From IMG/VR virus record IMGVR_UViG_3300014208_000027, positions 139,499 to 203,498 of that record: 64,000 nucleotides of DNA; one strand, written 5' to 3'. A model generated the notes under the pieces. The model was not told the origin of the DNA, made no database searches, and saw only the letters and a program-made list of their open reading frames with translations. This DNA comes from a virus (taxonomy: Duplodnaviria > Caudoviricetes). Numbering within the stretch: position 1 is the first letter of the stretch; every line of letters begins with the position of its first letter. Of the stretch, positions 46,949-55,065 are shown in pieces. A program made the translations under genes and the position numbers.

Positions 46949-47971
46949 GTGGTTACCTGGGCATATCATCCTTCGCTAGATTCTTTTGACGTTCAATACG
47001 CCAAATTATATTGTCTTGGTAAGCCTATTAAAGATGTATGTCCTAAGCGGTTACTTTCTCAGTGGCTTGCCTCTAAACAAAAAATAAAAGCATACAGTGT
47101 TTCTATCAGTGAGTCAAGAGTTTCTAAAGATATTTTATTATCTTCTTTAATTCCTAAACATGTCCTAGAGAATCATCTTAACTTAAAAAGTCTTATTTGT
47201 GAGCACGTATTAAAAACTTATCCCAAGCCAGAAAATTATGATTTTTTACTCCAAGCAACCAAACTTCTTTATGCTATTTCTACCAAAAAGGTTAATTTCG
47301 GCAATAATAGTGACCGTTACTGCAAGTATAATCTTTTTGGATCTAAGACTGGAAGGCTTACAACATTAAAAGATTCCTTTCCCATTCTAACTTTAAAACG
47401 CGAAGATCGTGTTCATATTAAACCTAACAATGATCTATTCATTGTGATGGATTACAATTCTGCTGAGCTGAGAACTTTGAATTGTTTGCTAGGCAAAGAA
47501 AATAATGTTGACGATCTTCATACCTGGAATGTTGAAAATCTCTATGACAATTCTACAACACGTGACCAAGCTAAGAAAGAATTTTTTGCATGGCTTTATA
47601 ATCCAGAATGCGTTAATGAACGGTTAGAAAGTCACTATAATAGGCAGAAATTATTGGAGAAGTATTTTGACGGGGAACAAATAAAAAACCCCTTTCAACG
47701 CGCTATAAAGTGTGACAATTACCATGCTTTAAACTATTTAATACAGTCAACTTTGACGGATCTGTTCTTGAGACAAGCCACTAAAATCTTTGAGAAATTA
47801 CAGAATAGTAAAAGTTATATTTCTATGCTAATACATGATAGTATAGTGATAGATTCGTGTAGGCAAGAAAAAAATATTTTGATGGAATGTGTTGACGCTT
47901 TTCAAGACACATGCTATGGTAAGTTTAAGGCTAGTGTAAAAGTCGGAAACAATTTAGGAGAGTTAAAATGA
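46949..47971 (+). CDS. minimal family A DNA polymerase-like protein
   Basis: TGRL; motif A MDYNSAELR; motif B RDQAKK.FF..LY; ALNYLIQST; motif C IHDS. No exonuclease domain. Confidence 0.75.
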   Translation: MVTWAYHPSLDSFDVQYAKLYCLGKPIKDVCPKRLLSQWLASKQKIKAYSVSISESRVSKDILLSSLIPKHVLENHLNLKSLICEHVLKTYPKPENYDFLLQATKLLYAISTKKVNFGNNSDRYCKYNLFGSKTGRLTTLKDSFPILTLKREDRVHIKPNNDLFIVMDYNSAELRTLNCLLGKENNVDDLHTWNVENLYDNSTTRDQAKKEFFAWLYNPECVNERLESHYNRQKLLEKYFDGEQIKNPFQRAIKCDNYHALNYLIQSTLTDLFLRQATKIFEKLQNSKSYISMLIHDSIVIDSCRQEKNILMECVDAFQDTCYGKFKASVKVGNNLGELK

Positions 47972-48138
47972 ATTTAATTTGCCCAGAATGTGAAGAAGTT
48001 GAGTCTGATGCTCAAAAGAAACTTAACAAGATTAAAAAGCAACTTGATATGTGGAACGATATGAATGTTTACGGTATGACCACATCAACGGAAGCATATC
48101 AACTTATTGATATTATCAAGAATATCGTGGAAAAGTAA
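47968..48138 (+). CDS. small Cys-containing protein (absent from the ORF track)
   Basis: MNLICPECEE...KNIVEK*; AGGAG SD. Confidence 0.6.
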   Translation: MNLICPECEEVESDAQKKLNKIKKQLDMWNDMNVYGMTTSTEAYQLIDIIKNIVEK

Positions 48139-48139
48139 A

Positions 48140-48430
48140 ATGAGCAAATCGTGGATTCATTATTATAGTAGAGAAACTCGTAATCAATGTAAGGATTATA
48201 AACTTCCTTTTTTGGAAAGAGCCAATTATTGTGATTGGGAAGACGCAGAAGAAACGAGATGGCAATGTTTTTGCGATAGACCTAAAAATCCTGGAAAAAA
48301 TCTTAGTGCCGAAGAAAAACTCGATAAAATCGAAAGTGTAATGAAGTTGTTCACCTTGGAAAATCAAGAAAATTACATCGATATTCTTGTCGACATTTAC
48401 GAAATTCTTTATGGTTCACAAAATGAGTAG
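48140..48430 (+). CDS. hypothetical protein
   Basis: ATG at 48140, just after the upstream stop. Confidence 0.6.
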   Translation: MSKSWIHYYSRETRNQCKDYKLPFLERANYCDWEDAEETRWQCFCDRPKNPGKNLSAEEKLDKIESVMKLFTLENQENYIDILVDIYEILYGSQNE

Positions 48431-48641
48431 CCATTTAAAATGTTTAGGTCGTGCTAATTGTGGCTGGGTAGATGGTGGTCAATATGTTTGTCATTGTTTT
48501 GAACCTGTCAAGAAAAATAGTTTAGAAGAGATAAAAGAACTTGTCTCATCAGTCTTGGCGAGGTTTGATTCTGTTAGGACTGAAAACGAAAATATCATGT
48601 TGAGTGTTTTAAATAAGATTAAGAAGGTCGTTGAAAAATGA
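48423..48641 (+). CDS. small Cys-rich protein
   Basis: MSSHLKC..NCGW..VCHC; overlapping start/stop. Confidence 0.55.
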   Translation: MSSHLKCLGRANCGWVDGGQYVCHCFEPVKKNSLEEIKELVSSVLARFDSVRTENENIMLSVLNKIKKVVEK

Positions 48642-48892
48642 TTACCAGGGATTCTATGGGTGAATACTTTCCGGAATATGATTTTGTTGGTATACGATGC
48701 GATGTATGTAATACATATATCGGAAAATGTACTCAAGATAGACAAGATAAAGAAGATGAAATAGATCTCTGCAAAGAGTGCAACGATAATGAAGAAATAA
48801 AAAATATGATCATTGATTACAAAGACAATGGAGCTGGATTCTTTGGACCTGAAGAACTCTTAGTAAAGATTAAAAAACTCATAGGTAAATAA
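48638..48892 (+). CDS. small zinc-finger protein
   Basis: CDVC...CKEC. Confidence 0.6.
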   Translation: MITRDSMGEYFPEYDFVGIRCDVCNTYIGKCTQDRQDKEDEIDLCKECNDNEEIKNMIIDYKDNGAGFFGPEELLVKIKKLIGK

Positions 48893-49728
48893 TGATCGTA
48901 CTTTCCCTTGGCCCTACTGCTTGTCGCATAGCAGATAAGTTTTCTTCTTACCCTGGCTATAAACTATACAAAATTAGCCACGACCTTGTGCGCATTAAAA
49001 ATAATTTAAAAGTCCCTCAATATGAACAGTTTTATGAATATGAACAAACTTTTCCGCAGGATAAATTAGATAGATTCCTCAAGACTTTGAGGGGTGAGGT
49101 TTTATTTGTTACTTGTGGAAGCGAACCGATATCATTATTATCATTACGTGTCTTGGAGATTTTGAGCAAGTCGTGTACGATTTCAATTTGTTATATTAAG
49201 CTAGACCAAATGTTGGTAGGACAAGAAAAAAAAGAGATTGAAAAACTTGTATATGAGATGTTACAAAATTATACTTTGTCAGGTTACGTTCAACAGATGT
49301 ATCTTTTTGACAACACTTTAGTTGAAAAAATGTGTCAAGATATAGATGTTTTTAATTATTATGACAAAGTATACGAGATGATAAGTTGGATACTTCATAC
49401 AAATAATTCTTTAAAGTACCAAGATGCTATATTTGATAATCTTAACAAAACTAGAGAGATGGGTATTAAGTCATTTAGTTTAGGATCTTTAGAAGGTGAA
49501 CAAAAAAATAGTACATTTCTACTTGACAAAGTGACTGAAGAAAAGGTATATTATGTTATCAATAAAAACTTAATACAGCAGAATAAAGAATTATTTAATA
49601 CGATTAGAAATGACATTCAAAAGGAGTCTATTGGCATAAATAAAAAAATGTGTTATGCGGTGTATTCAACAGAATTAGAGCAAAGTTTAGTACTAACAGA
49701 ACAACAAAGTTTAATTTACCAAAAATAA
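48892..49728 (+). CDS. tubulin/FtsZ-like (PhuZ/TubZ-like) protein, degenerate
   Basis: IVLSLGPTACRIADKF resembles the T1 loop GLGxAGCNIA; VLFVTCGS sits at the T4-loop position; MYLFDN. Confidence 0.55.
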   Translation: MIVLSLGPTACRIADKFSSYPGYKLYKISHDLVRIKNNLKVPQYEQFYEYEQTFPQDKLDRFLKTLRGEVLFVTCGSEPISLLSLRVLEILSKSCTISICYIKLDQMLVGQEKKEIEKLVYEMLQNYTLSGYVQQMYLFDNTLVEKMCQDIDVFNYYDKVYEMISWILHTNNSLKYQDAIFDNLNKTREMGIKSFSLGSLEGEQKNSTFLLDKVTEEKVYYVINKNLIQQNKELFNTIRNDIQKESIGINKKMCYAVYSTELEQSLVLTEQQSLIYQK

Positions 49729-49948: not shown

Positions 49949-50752
49949 ATGGCTTTAAATTTAGAAAAGATTCAAGAACGTCTTAATCGTCTTAACTCTA
50001 AGGGAAGGAATAATAATTCTTTTTGGAAGGTTCCTGAAGGCGAAAGTGTAATTCGTATTCCACCTATGCCTGATGGTGATCCATTTGTCGAGCATCATTT
50101 ACATTATAATGTTGGTAAGGCTGTAGGGTTTGTTTGTCTTAGACGAGAATATAATAAACCTTGCCCTGTGTGTGCACTTGTGAATAAACTTTATAAGTCT
50201 GATAATGCTGAAGATGTTGTATTAGCAAAGAAGTTAACTGCTAAGGCAAGATTTTATTCTCCTGTTCTAGTACGAGGGGAAGAAGAGAAGGGTGTTAGGT
50301 GGTGGAGTTATGCTAAGACTCCTTATGCTAAGCTGCTTAAATGGGCTAGCAATCAAGAAGAGTATGGAGATATCACGGATTCTAAACATGGTACTGATAT
50401 TGAATTAGTTAACAAGAAGCCACCAGGTGGTGAGTTTTTTGTTACTGATATCGAGTTAAAGCGTAAGGAAAGTGATTTCTGCAAGGGTATGGAAGAAGGG
50501 AAGTGCAAGGAATTATTAGAAAATATTCCTGAACTTATGATTGATAAAAAGACTGCTGAAGAAATACAAGTTCTACTTGACGAGTGGCTACTAGGAGACG
50601 AAGAAGAAACTGTTGAAAGTGCTGAGGAAGGTGGTGAAGTAGAGAAATTTGGTGTAGGTAAAGAAAAGAAATCTTCTCCTGCTAAGGCTGATAAAGAAAT
50701 GAGCGAAATTGACAAGAAGTTTGCCGAGCTAACTACTGAGGATGATGAATAA
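49949..50752 (+). CDS. single-stranded DNA-binding protein (T4 gp32-like)
   Basis: FWK...VIRIPP; zinc site H..C...CPVC; GDITD...GTDI; acidic C-terminal tail. Confidence 0.88.
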   Translation: MALNLEKIQERLNRLNSKGRNNNSFWKVPEGESVIRIPPMPDGDPFVEHHLHYNVGKAVGFVCLRREYNKPCPVCALVNKLYKSDNAEDVVLAKKLTAKARFYSPVLVRGEEEKGVRWWSYAKTPYAKLLKWASNQEEYGDITDSKHGTDIELVNKKPPGGEFFVTDIELKRKESDFCKGMEEGKCKELLENIPELMIDKKTAEEIQVLLDEWLLGDEEETVESAEEGGEVEKFGVGKEKKSSPAKADKEMSEIDKKFAELTTEDDE

Positions 50753-51087: not shown

Positions 51088-51129
51088 TCTCCTACTAATT
51101 AGTATAAGTTACTCTGTGATAGTAGGAGA
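51088..51129 (+). promoter_or_regulatory. SD-sequestering hairpin overlapping a putative late promoter
   Basis: TCTCCTACTA (51088-97) pairs with TAGTAGGAGA (51120-29); CTAATTAG at 51095-51102. Confidence 0.75.
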
Positions 51130-51136
51130 TTTATCA

Positions 51137-52261
51137 ATGACATTCGTTAGTTCTATCTCGGAAGAGACACTAAAACAAATTGCGGACCTTATTGTGGATG
51201 GCTATGGAAACAAGTATATTTTTGAACAATTTAATTTTGCGTTTTCTCACAAAGTGATTTATAGAGCTGCAAAAAAATTTGGTGTCTATGAACGATTAAA
51301 AGAAAATAACAAAAAAACGAAATCTTTTGCTATTAAGGATCGAGTAAAGAATTCTGCTTACGAAAGATATGTTGAGTTTGATGCGAAATACGGTGAAGAC
51401 GTTAAAAGAATGATAAATGACGGATTTCATATGAGCAAAATCTTAGTAGAGCTTGATCTTTGGCAGTCTTTTTTTACGAAATATTTAAAATGGAAAGATG
51501 CCGATGGGGGTTTGAAAAATCAGTTGTCAATCAACTCTGAGAGAGTTATTCGCGAAAATGGGTTGCGTAACATACAGTGGATAAAAGAAAATGTCGTTCC
51601 TTGGAATAAGAAAACAATTACTAACGACATTGCTCTTTACTACAAAGAACTGGTTGAGAATGGGCTGTATAGAGCACAAATCACTCGGTCTATGAAAAAA
51701 ATATATGATATTGGGCCAAAAAAAGTTGCTGAGATTATAAAAACATATGGGAAACCAAACGTTAAGTGTGATGGCAAAGGGAAAAATAATCCAGCTTATG
51801 GAAAGACATACATAAAAGGCGGAAGAGGAATTGTTGGTTTTATTTTGGCGAGCGGGAAGAAAATTTACTTCAGAAGTTCATTAGAGATGAAAATATATTT
51901 TTATTTACTTGAAAATGATGTTGCGTTTTCGCTTTCAAAACATTCAATAGAATATGAATTTGATGGGGCGAAGCGGACATATAACCCAGACATCGTAATT
52001 AGTGATGTGATTTATGAAATTAAACCCAGAAAATTGGTTTCTTTAAGAATCAATGTAGAGAAATTTAATGCACTAAAAAAATATTGTGAAAAGTTTAGCT
52101 TAAAATGCGATCATATTTTTGAGGATACATTTAACTGTAGTTTTATTGATTTAGATTATGTAGAACAAAAAATAAAGGACGGAATTTTGCTTTTAGACCA
52201 AAAACAAGAAGAGAGATTGAAGAGGATTATGAAATATGAGAGTAAAAATATCAAAAATTAA
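51137..52261 (+). CDS. free-standing PD-(D/E)XK (TnsA-N-like) homing endonuclease with NUMOD3 motif
   Basis: GKNNPAYGK NUMOD3; FRSSLE..RTYNPDI...IYEIKP nuclease motif; ATG behind AGGAG. Confidence 0.8.
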   Translation: MTFVSSISEETLKQIADLIVDGYGNKYIFEQFNFAFSHKVIYRAAKKFGVYERLKENNKKTKSFAIKDRVKNSAYERYVEFDAKYGEDVKRMINDGFHMSKILVELDLWQSFFTKYLKWKDADGGLKNQLSINSERVIRENGLRNIQWIKENVVPWNKKTITNDIALYYKELVENGLYRAQITRSMKKIYDIGPKKVAEIIKTYGKPNVKCDGKGKNNPAYGKTYIKGGRGIVGFILASGKKIYFRSSLEMKIYFYLLENDVAFSLSKHSIEYEFDGAKRTYNPDIVISDVIYEIKPRKLVSLRINVEKFNALKKYCEKFSLKCDHIFEDTFNCSFIDLDYVEQKIKDGILLLDQKQEERLKRIMKYESKNIKN

Positions 52262-53450: not shown

Positions 53451-53481
53451 TCATTTTCTTTTTTTCTTTCTATTTAAATTT

Positions 53482-54129: not shown

Positions 54130-54525
54130 ATGACTCGCAAAATTTTATCCTACTTTGAGTTAGCCAAGAATATAGCATTCCAAAGTAATCACGATGTATT
54201 TCGTCATGGTGCTATTCTTGTGAAGGGCAGTAAAATAATAAATGCTTCCTGTAACAATGTTCACTATAGTAAGTTTGCCAAAAGGTTTCTTCCTAGAGGA
54301 TATTCAGAGCGGTTTGCTACTCGTCATGCGGAATTGTCTGTAGTTTTAAATGTTTGCCCAGAGAATACTCATGGTGCAGATGTTTATGTGGTGCGAATAA
54401 ATAATGATGGTGAGTTTAGGTATAGTCACCCTTGCCCAATGTGTCTAAATGTGCTAGAATTTGTAGGCATAAGAAATGTTTATTATTCTTTGAACGGTGA
54501 AGGATATGGAAAAGTTAGAATTTGA
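54130..54525 (+). CDS. dCMP/cytidine deaminase-like zinc protein
   Basis: RHGAILV; HAE...PCPMC. Confidence 0.88.
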   Translation: MTRKILSYFELAKNIAFQSNHDVFRHGAILVKGSKIINASCNNVHYSKFAKRFLPRGYSERFATRHAELSVVLNVCPENTHGADVYVVRINNDGEFRYSHPCPMCLNVLEFVGIRNVYYSLNGEGYGKVRI

Positions 54526-54721
54526 AACGGGAATGTTAGCAATCTTGCTTGATTGGAAAGGTGATCATTGGGAATATAACGTAGTGGTTTTATTAATCGT
54601 GCAAGATCCCATCGGTCTTCACACTGAGCCGTCCTGGCTGGTATTTAATTTTTTCACCAACAAAAAGGAGGTTCACTATCAGCACCTATTTTCCCGACTT
54701 ACTGGTACAAATCATGTCTAA
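54506..54721 (+). CDS. small SH3/KOW-like protein
   Basis: MEKLEFETGMLAI; AAGGA SD. Confidence 0.55.
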   Translation: MEKLEFETGMLAILLDWKGDHWEYNVVVLLIVQDPIGLHTEPSWLVFNFFTNKKEVHYQHLFSRLTGTNHV

Positions 54722-54884
54722 ATTAGAATTTGAAGTTGGAGATCTGGTGCAGTTTAATTCAGCTGATTTTGCAGTAATACTCTGTATTGATGAGAAGGAA
54801 GCAAAACTTTTTTGTTTTGATAGCCAATGTGTAGAAATTTTTCTTTCCTTCGGGGATTATACAAAGACGTTTGAACATGCATAA
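54714..54884 (+). CDS. small SH3/KOW-like protein (absent from the ORF track)
   Basis: MSKLEFEVGDLVQF...TFEHA*; 56 aa. Confidence 0.6.
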   Translation: MSKLEFEVGDLVQFNSADFAVILCIDEKEAKLFCFDSQCVEIFLSFGDYTKTFEHA

Positions 54885-55065
54885 ATTTAAAATTGGCGAT
54901 TTGGTAAAAATTAAAATTGAATCATGTGTTAGACACGACGGGACATATGGGATTGTTTTAAAAATTTCTCATGGTAGTTCGGAGTATTGTGATGAGTTGT
55001 TAGTTTATTCTTTTAATTTTTCAGAGTTTTTGCATCAAATTCCAAGTTCAATAGAAATAATTTAA
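54877..55065 (+). CDS. small SH3/KOW-like protein
   Basis: MHKFKIGDLVKIK. Confidence 0.6.
   Translation: MHKFKIGDLVKIKIESCVRHDGTYGIVLKISHGSSEYCDELLVYSFNFSEFLHQIPSSIEII

Follow-up and report, generated by a model that had tools for sequence, protein, structure and literature searches.

An endonuclease gene inserted into the split recombinase gene uvsX of a T4-like myovirus is preceded by an RNA hairpin that covers its Shine-Dalgarno sequence and by a late-type promoter word that overlaps the 5' arm of this hairpin. The locus lies in the last 64 kb (the window) of a 203,498-bp IMG/VR virus record, IMGVR_UViG_3300014208_000027 (genome G000; ~203 kb). In the reading that we favour, the endonuclease gene would be lodged 13 codons into an intein interrupting the Walker A P-loop of UvsX, so that an ultra-short IntN would remain attached to the N-terminal half and a 121-residue IntC to the C-terminal half, and UvsX would be rejoined by trans-splicing. 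On read-through RNA from a non-late promoter, the region following the stop codon of the N-terminal half (uvsX-N) would pair with the endonuclease Shine-Dalgarno sequence and the nuclease would be translated poorly; late RNA from CTAATTA would start at about 51102-51107 and leave out the anti-Shine-Dalgarno arm, and its ribosome-binding site would be accessible. The nuclease would consequently be made mainly late. We give this full scheme, a hairpin-gated endonuclease freed by a late promoter within a fractured uvsX, a probability of roughly 0.75. It is directly supported by the stem and its rarity, the behaviour of the motif, their recurrence in relatives, the fold of the nuclease, the intein junctions and an empty-site allele, and we infer from these the start and late timing of transcription, the translational repression, the trans-splicing, and DNA cleavage or homing.

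The hairpin over the endonuclease start

The sequence TCTCCTACTA (51088-97) is the exact reverse complement of TAGTAGGAGA (51120-29), so that the two form a 10-bp stem closing a loop of 22 nucleotides. The Shine-Dalgarno sequence AGGAGA (51124-51129) lies in the 3' arm, 7 nucleotides before ATG 51137, which the alignment of homologues favours as the true start over an upstream GTG. An earlier note on this DNA had claimed both the perfect complementarity of the arms and the location of the Shine-Dalgarno sequence in the 3' arm, and both are as it described them. The stem is the minimum-energy as well as the centroid structure (z-scores of −2.98 and −2.76), and only one of 200 shuffled sequences folds as well. 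Perfect inverted repeats of at least 10 bp with a loop of 3-40 nucleotides occur at about 20 distinct places in the 203 kb of the genome, and the pair TCTCCTACTA/TAGTAGGAGA is the only one located at a gene start.

When the region from −60 to +30 was folded for all 252 called genes, the endonuclease gene had a Shine-Dalgarno pairing probability of 0.90, which places it second of 252, and it was fourth by energy; the pairing of its initiation region (0.82) was the highest among the 15 genes listed. The leader thus has a stable structure that sequesters the Shine-Dalgarno sequence, a perfect 10-bp stem over AGGAGA, as is characteristic of I-TevI/mobE-type control. In predicted folds of an RNA starting at 51106, the energy changes from −26.5 to −9.8 kcal/mol, the pairing of the initiation region drops from 0.71 to 0.32, and the z-score becomes +0.86.

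We also considered the stem as an intrinsic terminator and rejected it, as our scan returned no terminator-like site at 51088-51129, the loop has 22 nucleotides and only three U follow the stem. The same scan, whose evidence is at the level of consensus, found no terminator-like site upstream of the endonuclease gene. Relatives of the endonuclease with between 36% and 100% protein identity were not found, which left none for a covariation analysis of the 51088-51129 stem.

CTAWTTA as a probable late-type promoter word

The earlier note had drawn attention to the 8-mer CTAATTAG at 51095-51102. Its overlap with the 5' arm, of which it shares the final 3 nucleotides, is real; as a motif the 8-mer is not enriched, since the window contains 2 copies and chance alone would give 1.97, and we replaced it by the 7-mer CTAWTTA as the meaningful word. 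In an unbiased k-mer scan of upstream regions, CTAATTA ranked first and CTATTTA second. Within 60 nucleotides upstream of gene starts they are enriched 13.9-fold and 11.4-fold, respectively, whereas one-base variants are mostly unenriched (ATAATTA 1.4-fold, TTAATTA 1.2-fold, CTAAATA 0).

Of the 57 genomic copies of CTAWTTA, 27 are on the sense strand within about 40 nucleotides of a gene start. The ATG follows either after 4-8 nucleotides, too few to accommodate a Shine-Dalgarno sequence, or after 15-39 nucleotides that include one, and several very short gaps between genes contain the motif as a divergent pair (e.g. window 3382/3392). The genes behind the motif include those for the portal, the tail sheath, the tail tube and a tail-fibre-like protein, and one copy is located 124 nucleotides before the open reading frame (ORF) of a head protease; other genes have classical TTGACA-N17-TATAGT promoters. 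Because of its position and the class of the downstream genes, we read CTAWTTA as a probable single-element late-type promoter, analogous to and distinct from TATAAATA of T4. At the sequence level, the late-promoter element that the earlier note had placed at the 5' arm is thereby borne out, as CTAWTTA behaves like a phage-specific promoter word of structural genes.

The last bases of the 5' arm are also part of the copy in the endonuclease leader (CTAATTA, 51095-51101), which is in this respect positioned as a late promoter that omits the inhibitory arm. Since in many genes the ATG follows only 4-5 nucleotides after the motif, transcripts would start within about 5 nucleotides of its end, and the late RNA of the endonuclease would then begin at about 51102-51107, past the last base of the 5' arm. 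This predicted start is a few bases upstream of the 51107-51110 expected in the earlier note. Between 47734 and 51095 there is no other CTAWTTA. The leader copy is part of a perfect 12-bp palindrome, TACTAATTAGTA (51093-51104), which places the promoter word on the minus strand as well, facing uvsX-N; none of the called ORFs is a minus-strand gene at 51093-51104.

Many genes of this genome have CTAWTTA 4-5 nucleotides before the ATG and lack a Shine-Dalgarno sequence (in the window e.g. 36956, 38637, 41943 and 53470), which suggests that many of its late mRNAs are leaderless. A 239-residue protein (L010:12979-13695, plus strand, corresponding to G000 72979-73695) was considered as the sigma factor for this motif and set aside, having no Pfam or PHROG match; its Atlas neighbours include a viral cluster with Sigma70_r2 in 21% of the members, which is a lead only.

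Recurrence of the design in homologous uvsX loci

Deposited phage genomes contained no blastn match to the locus, and viral contigs yielded nothing when searched with the endonuclease or the UvsX extein as single proteins. We gathered relatives through an alignment of the endonuclease (A1) and protein searches. Three database homologues with 31-35% identity are all encoded between gp32/uvsX-N and the ORF for IntC and the C-terminal half of UvsX (IntC-uvsX-C). A profile search yielded 2037 representatives of the endonuclease family at E <= 1e-3, and roughly 60 members of the family are full-length. In viral contigs, 14 loci with endonuclease homologues were detected by scanning. Six of these (L014-L019) have the full arrangement of uvsX-N/IntN, endonuclease and IntC-uvsX-C; L016 is nearly identical to L017, and in L019 the 5' end is cut off. 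In L020-L022 (G005) only a nuclease core of 138-150 residues is left of the endonuclease, and in L027 a 71-residue remnant, whereas L023-L026 are free-standing homologues elsewhere, with NUMOD3 motifs in both of those scanned (L023, L025). The reduced forms in L020-L022 have lost the N-terminal DNA-binding modules, no promoter motif was seen in their spacer, and they resemble a decaying copy. Four further loci, which were chosen blind from the profile matches (L044-L047), all proved to be at the same insertion site.

The comparison covered the 12 loci whose endonuclease is full-length and whose leader was available, i.e. the window and 11 diverged loci. All 11 have uvsX-N with an IntN of 13-15 residues, the endonuclease and IntC-uvsX-C, and their endonucleases share about one third of their residues. 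A word of the type [C/A]TAWTTA is present in the spacer of 21-59 nucleotides at 11 of the 12 loci (10 of the 11 relatives, in spacers of 21-55 nucleotides). Start-region hairpins with z-scores of −1.7 or below are found at nine loci, namely the window (−2.8 to −3.0) and eight of the 11 relatives: L046 (−6.4), L018 (−4.9), L003 (−4.1, and −7.3 over the full stem), L015 (−4.05), L016 (−3.9), L047 (−2.3), L002 (−2.1) and L006 (−1.7). The stems of the relatives have no sequence in common, yet all of them include the Shine-Dalgarno sequence or the AUG in their pairing, and the motif is always found within the 5' arm, partly shared with it or directly behind it. The design of the window is reproduced exactly in L018 and L046. 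The timing logic with a hairpin and a late promoter that the earlier note had proposed by analogy to T4 has therefore held in all parts that can be tested on sequence, and the design recurs in most of the 11 loci.

In all five phages in which this could be tested, the motif before the endonuclease is the variant that the resident phage itself uses, which is CTAWTTA in G000, G001 and L049 and ATATTTA in G002 and L048. The sheath protein of G001 is 54% identical to that of G000, and the two genomes have the same top k-mers. At L014 and L015 the ATG follows 6 nucleotides after the motif, which is the leaderless-type spacing. There, another gate may stand in for some or all of the hairpin, namely an ATG 6 nucleotides behind the promoter with no clear Shine-Dalgarno sequence before it; if so, only a leaderless late mRNA would allow translation of the gene, which would be silent in read-through transcripts. 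We propose only tentatively, and with more doubt than confidence, that promoter and anti-start hairpin, including this gate, constitute a portable module which travels with the endonuclease family and is re-tuned to the late-promoter word of each host.

The same design at another homing endonuclease gene

Elsewhere in the genome, an ORF of 230 residues on the minus strand (L012:12041-12730) matches homing-endonuclease PHROGs. Upstream of it, CTATTTA is directly followed by the stem AAGAGACAC...GUGUCUCUU, which extends over the end of the Shine-Dalgarno sequence and is directly adjacent to the UUG start codon. Folding gives a z-score of −2.56, and the structure disappears if the RNA starts after CTATTTA. 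The neighbouring ORF, a 305-residue zinc-ribbon protein resembling endonuclease VII/HNH, has a plain AGGAGA and no CTAWTTA motif.

The endonuclease protein

The endonuclease of the uvsX locus begins with helical modules that resemble DNA-binding domains, followed by a PD-(D/E)xK core at about residues 234-330. Residues E250, P284-D285 and E294-I-K296 are invariant in alignment A1. The AlphaFold model (pLDDT 78) has helical N-terminal modules and an alpha-beta core with a beta-sheet at residues 234-330, so that the conserved acidic residue, the PD and the (D/E)xK that define the PD-(D/E)xK superfamily are all present on an alpha-beta core. In Foldseek searches with the model, the best match was TnsA (1t0f/1f1z; probability 1.0, E = 4e-3, root-mean-square deviation 2.8 Å over 129 columns), followed by I-Bth0305I with a root-mean-square deviation of 8.3 Å. 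In profile comparisons, the protein matched phrog_15427 (endonuclease) with E = 1.6e-10.

Three narrower assignments were rejected. The EDxHD motif of the Vsr-like group to which I-Bth0305I belongs is not among the conserved columns of A1, and the scores for TnsA_N (PF08722, 18.2 bits) and Phage_endo_I (PF05367, 19.5 bits) are below the gathering cut-offs of 26.5 and 29.1 bits, respectively. The resemblance to TnsA is limited to the level of the fold. The TnsA-like nuclease of the earlier note thus stands as far as the best structural match and the PD-(D/E)xK core are concerned, and falls short of the Pfam threshold for TnsA; as modelled, the protein is a PD-(D/E)xK nuclease with a TnsA-like fold and not a demonstrated member of the TnsA family.

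The split intein, the exteins and an empty site

RecA/UvsX matches are found on both ORFs of the split gene, with a junction of the form C1...HN|S+1. The N-extein matches Pfam RecA with E = 7.9e-5 and phrog_97 (UvsX-like recombinase) with E = 1.2e-11, and it aligns to an intact allele, P0153. When the two halves are joined, they rebuild the P-loop as GLEA|SGKS, in alignment with P0153. Between them is the free-standing endonuclease ORF (51137-52261), which overlaps the downstream ORF by 26 nucleotides from its ATG at 52236, so that the locus has the organisation of a fractured gene. The junctions ...G-x-x-x | C[VL][TH].D... (IntN of 13-15 residues) and ...H[NH]N | [ST]GK[ST] are common to all uvsX loci that we examined.

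With 13 and 121 residues, IntN and IntC fall within the range of short-IntN split inteins (IntN of up to about 25 residues, IntC of at least about 100) and their splicing blocks are intact: IntN begins with Cys, and IntC carries SNHH (block B-like) and the terminal HN, which is followed by Ser+1. In an alignment that spans all of IntC, it matches the VidaL intein of solved structure (6vgv, E = 1.5e-4), and both end before SGK; the likeness to VidaL is drawn because of this match to a PDB sequence. The two intein halves presumably rejoin UvsX through trans-splicing.

The intact allele P0153 (L043) is an uninterrupted UvsX of 377 residues, 80% identical to the exteins joined in silico and 83% identical to the window over the C-extein region. 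L043 is syntenic, with the same neighbouring genes and CTAATTA 4 nucleotides before the ATG of the next gene. Its P-loop, around base 362 of L043, reads GLNS-VGKS where the window has GLEA|SGKS. The closest relative has an empty site, more distant relatives have occupied ones, and some nuclease copies are decayed, a pattern that would fit the life cycle of a homing element.

In several loci we noted further features of interest. L006, which has an endonuclease-bearing uvsX, and L043, with its uninterrupted uvsX, come from the same run (SRR33452759) and belong to different phage lineages. In L027 (4198-6581), the uvsX-C region is broken again by an ORF ending ...NGQVNHNT, which is probably a second intein, and the uvsX-C ORF of L018 (5957-7696) has 579 residues and thus room for another insertion. 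A class II ribonucleotide reductase in L048 (14912-17261) is encoded by two adjacent ORFs, both of which match the intein splicing domain, with CTAATTA 18 nucleotides before the second; possibly, this is a further fractured gene, in this case one that lacks an endonuclease.

Weighing the alternatives

Several observations weigh against a hairpin-gated, late-promoter-freed endonuclease. The significance of the hairpin depends on the window that is folded, as a longer fold of 108 nucleotides gives a z-score of only −1.46. Among the relatives, L003 has no [C/A]TAWTTA-type word before its endonuclease, and in L014, L044 and L045 the hairpin is weak or absent. The designation of the promoter as late is based on its association with structural genes, and some of the genes preceded by CTAWTTA have no known function; the transcription start and its timing are likewise deduced, and no cognate sigma factor for CTAWTTA was confirmed in this genome. 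Being palindromic, the motif could also act on the other strand. Finally, the intact allele has Val at the position of the intein's Ser+1, and homing would therefore need co-conversion of the flanks.

Of the alternatives, all of which we consider unlikely, the one that survives best is that the new 5' end results from RNA processing, or that the module mainly serves IntC-uvsX-C or the stability of the mRNA, the control of the endonuclease being a side effect. CTAWTTA would then be a cleavage or stability element, or a promoter of uvsX-C. The endonuclease gene overlaps the start of uvsX-C at every locus, mostly by 4-26 nucleotides and by up to 53 as called in L006, and one transcript therefore serves both genes; Dassa et al. 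had raised the same possibility (PMC2677866). The near-fixed location of the motif 4-8 nucleotides before many ATGs, together with its divergent pairs in tiny gaps, is promoter-like, however, and the stems cover the Shine-Dalgarno sequence or the AUG of the endonuclease rather than those of uvsX-C. Further, the second endonuclease gene has the same design without being located inside a split gene.

It is less probable still that the inverted repeat acts as DNA, be it as an operator of the endonuclease (by I-TevI-style autorepression), as the site of another protein or as part of a bidirectional promoter. Such a role would be in keeping with the 12-bp palindrome, with the divergent CTAWTTA pairs elsewhere in the genome and with I-TevI, whose operator overlaps its late promoter (PMC2988022). 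An operator-like copy of the homing site was not detected in the spacer, as local alignments to the P-loop site of L043 and to the rejoined junction of the window were no better than those of shuffled controls, and the minus strand has no gene at this site. In addition, the arms of the relatives differ in sequence yet always pair with the start region, which argues for RNA structure, and not a binding sequence, as the target of selection.

That the stem is a chance inverted repeat without regulatory effect beside a real promoter is the least probable explanation: with about 20 such repeats in the genome, roughly one could arise near some gene start by chance, and the z-score is only −1.46 in one folding window, but this repeat is located at the very homing-type endonuclease gene by which uvsX is interrupted, its pairing with the Shine-Dalgarno sequence is exact, and eight of the 11 diverged loci as well as the other homing endonuclease gene that we examined also sequester their start regions.

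Layout of the locus

The window has a G+C content of about 35% and its large ORFs are nearly all on the plus strand. The coordinates of the features are given in Table 1. The stop codon of gp32 overlaps the start codon of uvsX-N (TAATG, by inspection of the sequence). A sigma-70-like promoter candidate at 49523-49552 is the likely source of the non-late RNA which would run through gp32 and uvsX-N into the endonuclease gene.

Table 1. Features of the uvsX locus (window coordinates) and position of a pair of endonuclease-like genes elsewhere in the genome
Feature	Position	Strand	Remarks
Sigma-70-like promoter candidate TTGACA-18-TATATT	49523-49552	+	11 of 12 consensus matches; consensus match only
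gp32-like single-stranded DNA-binding protein gene	49949-50752	+	Pfam gp32, E = 3e-12
uvsX-N ORF, 109 residues	50752-51081	+	matches start of RecA/UvsX
UvsX/RecA N-extein, 96 residues	50752-51039	+	ends ...EMSGLEA within Walker A P-loop
IntN, 13 residues (CVTEDTEVDIEVE), and stop codon	51040-51081	+	conserved C[VL][TH].D....[IV]... at same site of homologous loci
Hairpin 5' arm (anti-Shine-Dalgarno) TCTCCTACTA	51088-51097	+	
CTAATTA, instance of CTAWTTA late-type promoter motif	51095-51101	+	within 12-bp palindrome TACTAATTAGTA (51093-51104)
Predicted 5' end of late transcripts	51102-51107	+	
Hairpin 3' arm TAGTAGGAGA	51120-51129	+	with Shine-Dalgarno AGGAGA 51124-51129
Free-standing endonuclease gene, 374 residues	51137-52261	+	
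GAGGA, candidate Shine-Dalgarno for IntC-uvsX-C	52222-52226	+	inside 3' end of endonuclease gene; putative
IntC-uvsX-C ORF, 404 residues	52236-53450	+	first ~120 residues match intein/HINT models, rest RecA/UvsX
IntC, 121 residues	52236-52598	+	ends ...GNGILNHN; Pfam PT-HINT and Intein_splicing
UvsX/RecA C-extein, 283 residues	52599-53450	+	begins SGKSY; Pfam RecA E = 4.6e-22, phrog_97 E = 1.2e-34
CTATTTA, 5 nucleotides before ATG 53482 of next gene	53470-53476	+	local comparison: putative late promoter of the leaderless type
Two adjacent endonuclease-like genes	L012:11121-12730 (G000 111121-112730)	-	

Runs of small ORFs (56-84 residues) with the look of tandem families are found at window 47968-48892 and 54497-55065 and at L012:12802-13932. 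Several of those at 47968-48892 have paired cysteines (CxxC-like), and those at 54714-55065 and in L012 share N-termini of the type (F/P)-x-(V/I/P)-G-(D/Q)-(L/I/M)-(V/I/L).

Comparison with known systems

The control scheme proposed for the uvsX locus is already known from T4 and from other fractured genes with split inteins, of which this locus is a further instance. In T4 I-TevI, I-TevII, I-TevIII and segB and in Aeh1 mobE, a hairpin hides the ribosome-binding site and a late promoter omits the inhibitory arm; I-TevI in addition binds an operator overlapping its own late promoter (PMC2988022). The earlier note had cited this precedent correctly. As in these cases, the stem would hide the ribosome-binding site on RNA from an upstream promoter and the late promoter would skip the inhibitory arm. 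The T4 and Aeh1 systems have been mapped experimentally, whereas the uvsX locus is known from its sequence alone; it also differs from them in the nuclease family, in the promoter motif and in its carrier, which is a split intein instead of a group I intron or an intergenic site. Unlike I-TevI, it has no operator-like copy of the homing site that we could find in the window spacer.

Fractured genes were described by Dassa et al. in 2009 as a split intein with a free-standing endonuclease gene that overlaps the downstream ORF; hairpins were present in 15 of 16 leaders of their endonucleases, 10 of them including the late promoter TATAAATA (PMC2677866). The uvsX locus shares with these the phage setting, a gene of DNA metabolism broken into two ORFs that carry the intein halves at the junction and flank an endonuclease ORF, the overlap of the endonuclease 3' end with the downstream ORF, and a leader hairpin that carries a late-promoter element. 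It differs in the host gene, in the nuclease, which is of the PD-(D/E)xK type and TnsA/endonuclease-I-like and not GIY-YIG or Vsr-like, in the promoter word, which is CTAWTTA or ATATTTA and not TATAAATA, and in an intein that is split after only 13 residues. In the fractured-gene literature that we examined, uvsX was not found described as fractured; Dassa et al. mention it only as an ORF neighbouring fractured gp41 loci (PMC2677866).

The findings open no new question, and specialists would expect the design. They extend the T4 control scheme to a group of uncultured phages with another late-promoter word, many apparently leaderless late genes and another nuclease family. The 12 diverged loci, together with the empty-site allele, constitute a comparative system for the ways in which mobile nucleases limit the harm to an essential host gene.

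Like TnsA of Tn7 and T7 endonuclease I, the endonuclease is a PD-(D/E)xK nuclease with the catalytic signature E...PD...ExK. Unlike both, it has additional N-terminal DNA-binding modules, and its free-standing relatives have NUMOD3, both of which are typical of homing endonucleases. Partner genes of Tn7 are not present.

Natural split inteins with a short IntN were already known (AceL-TerL, GOS-TerL) and such inteins are used in protein engineering (PMC11766414). The intein of the uvsX locus resembles VidaL (6vgv/6vgw) in the end-to-end alignment of IntC, in the junction before the SGK of the P-loop and in the very short N-terminal piece, while their sequence similarity is low. We take the VidaL intein to come from a uvsX gene as well. 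The locus described here provides a natural genomic setting for an ultra-short split intein of this kind, with a nuclease gene located 13 codons into the intein.

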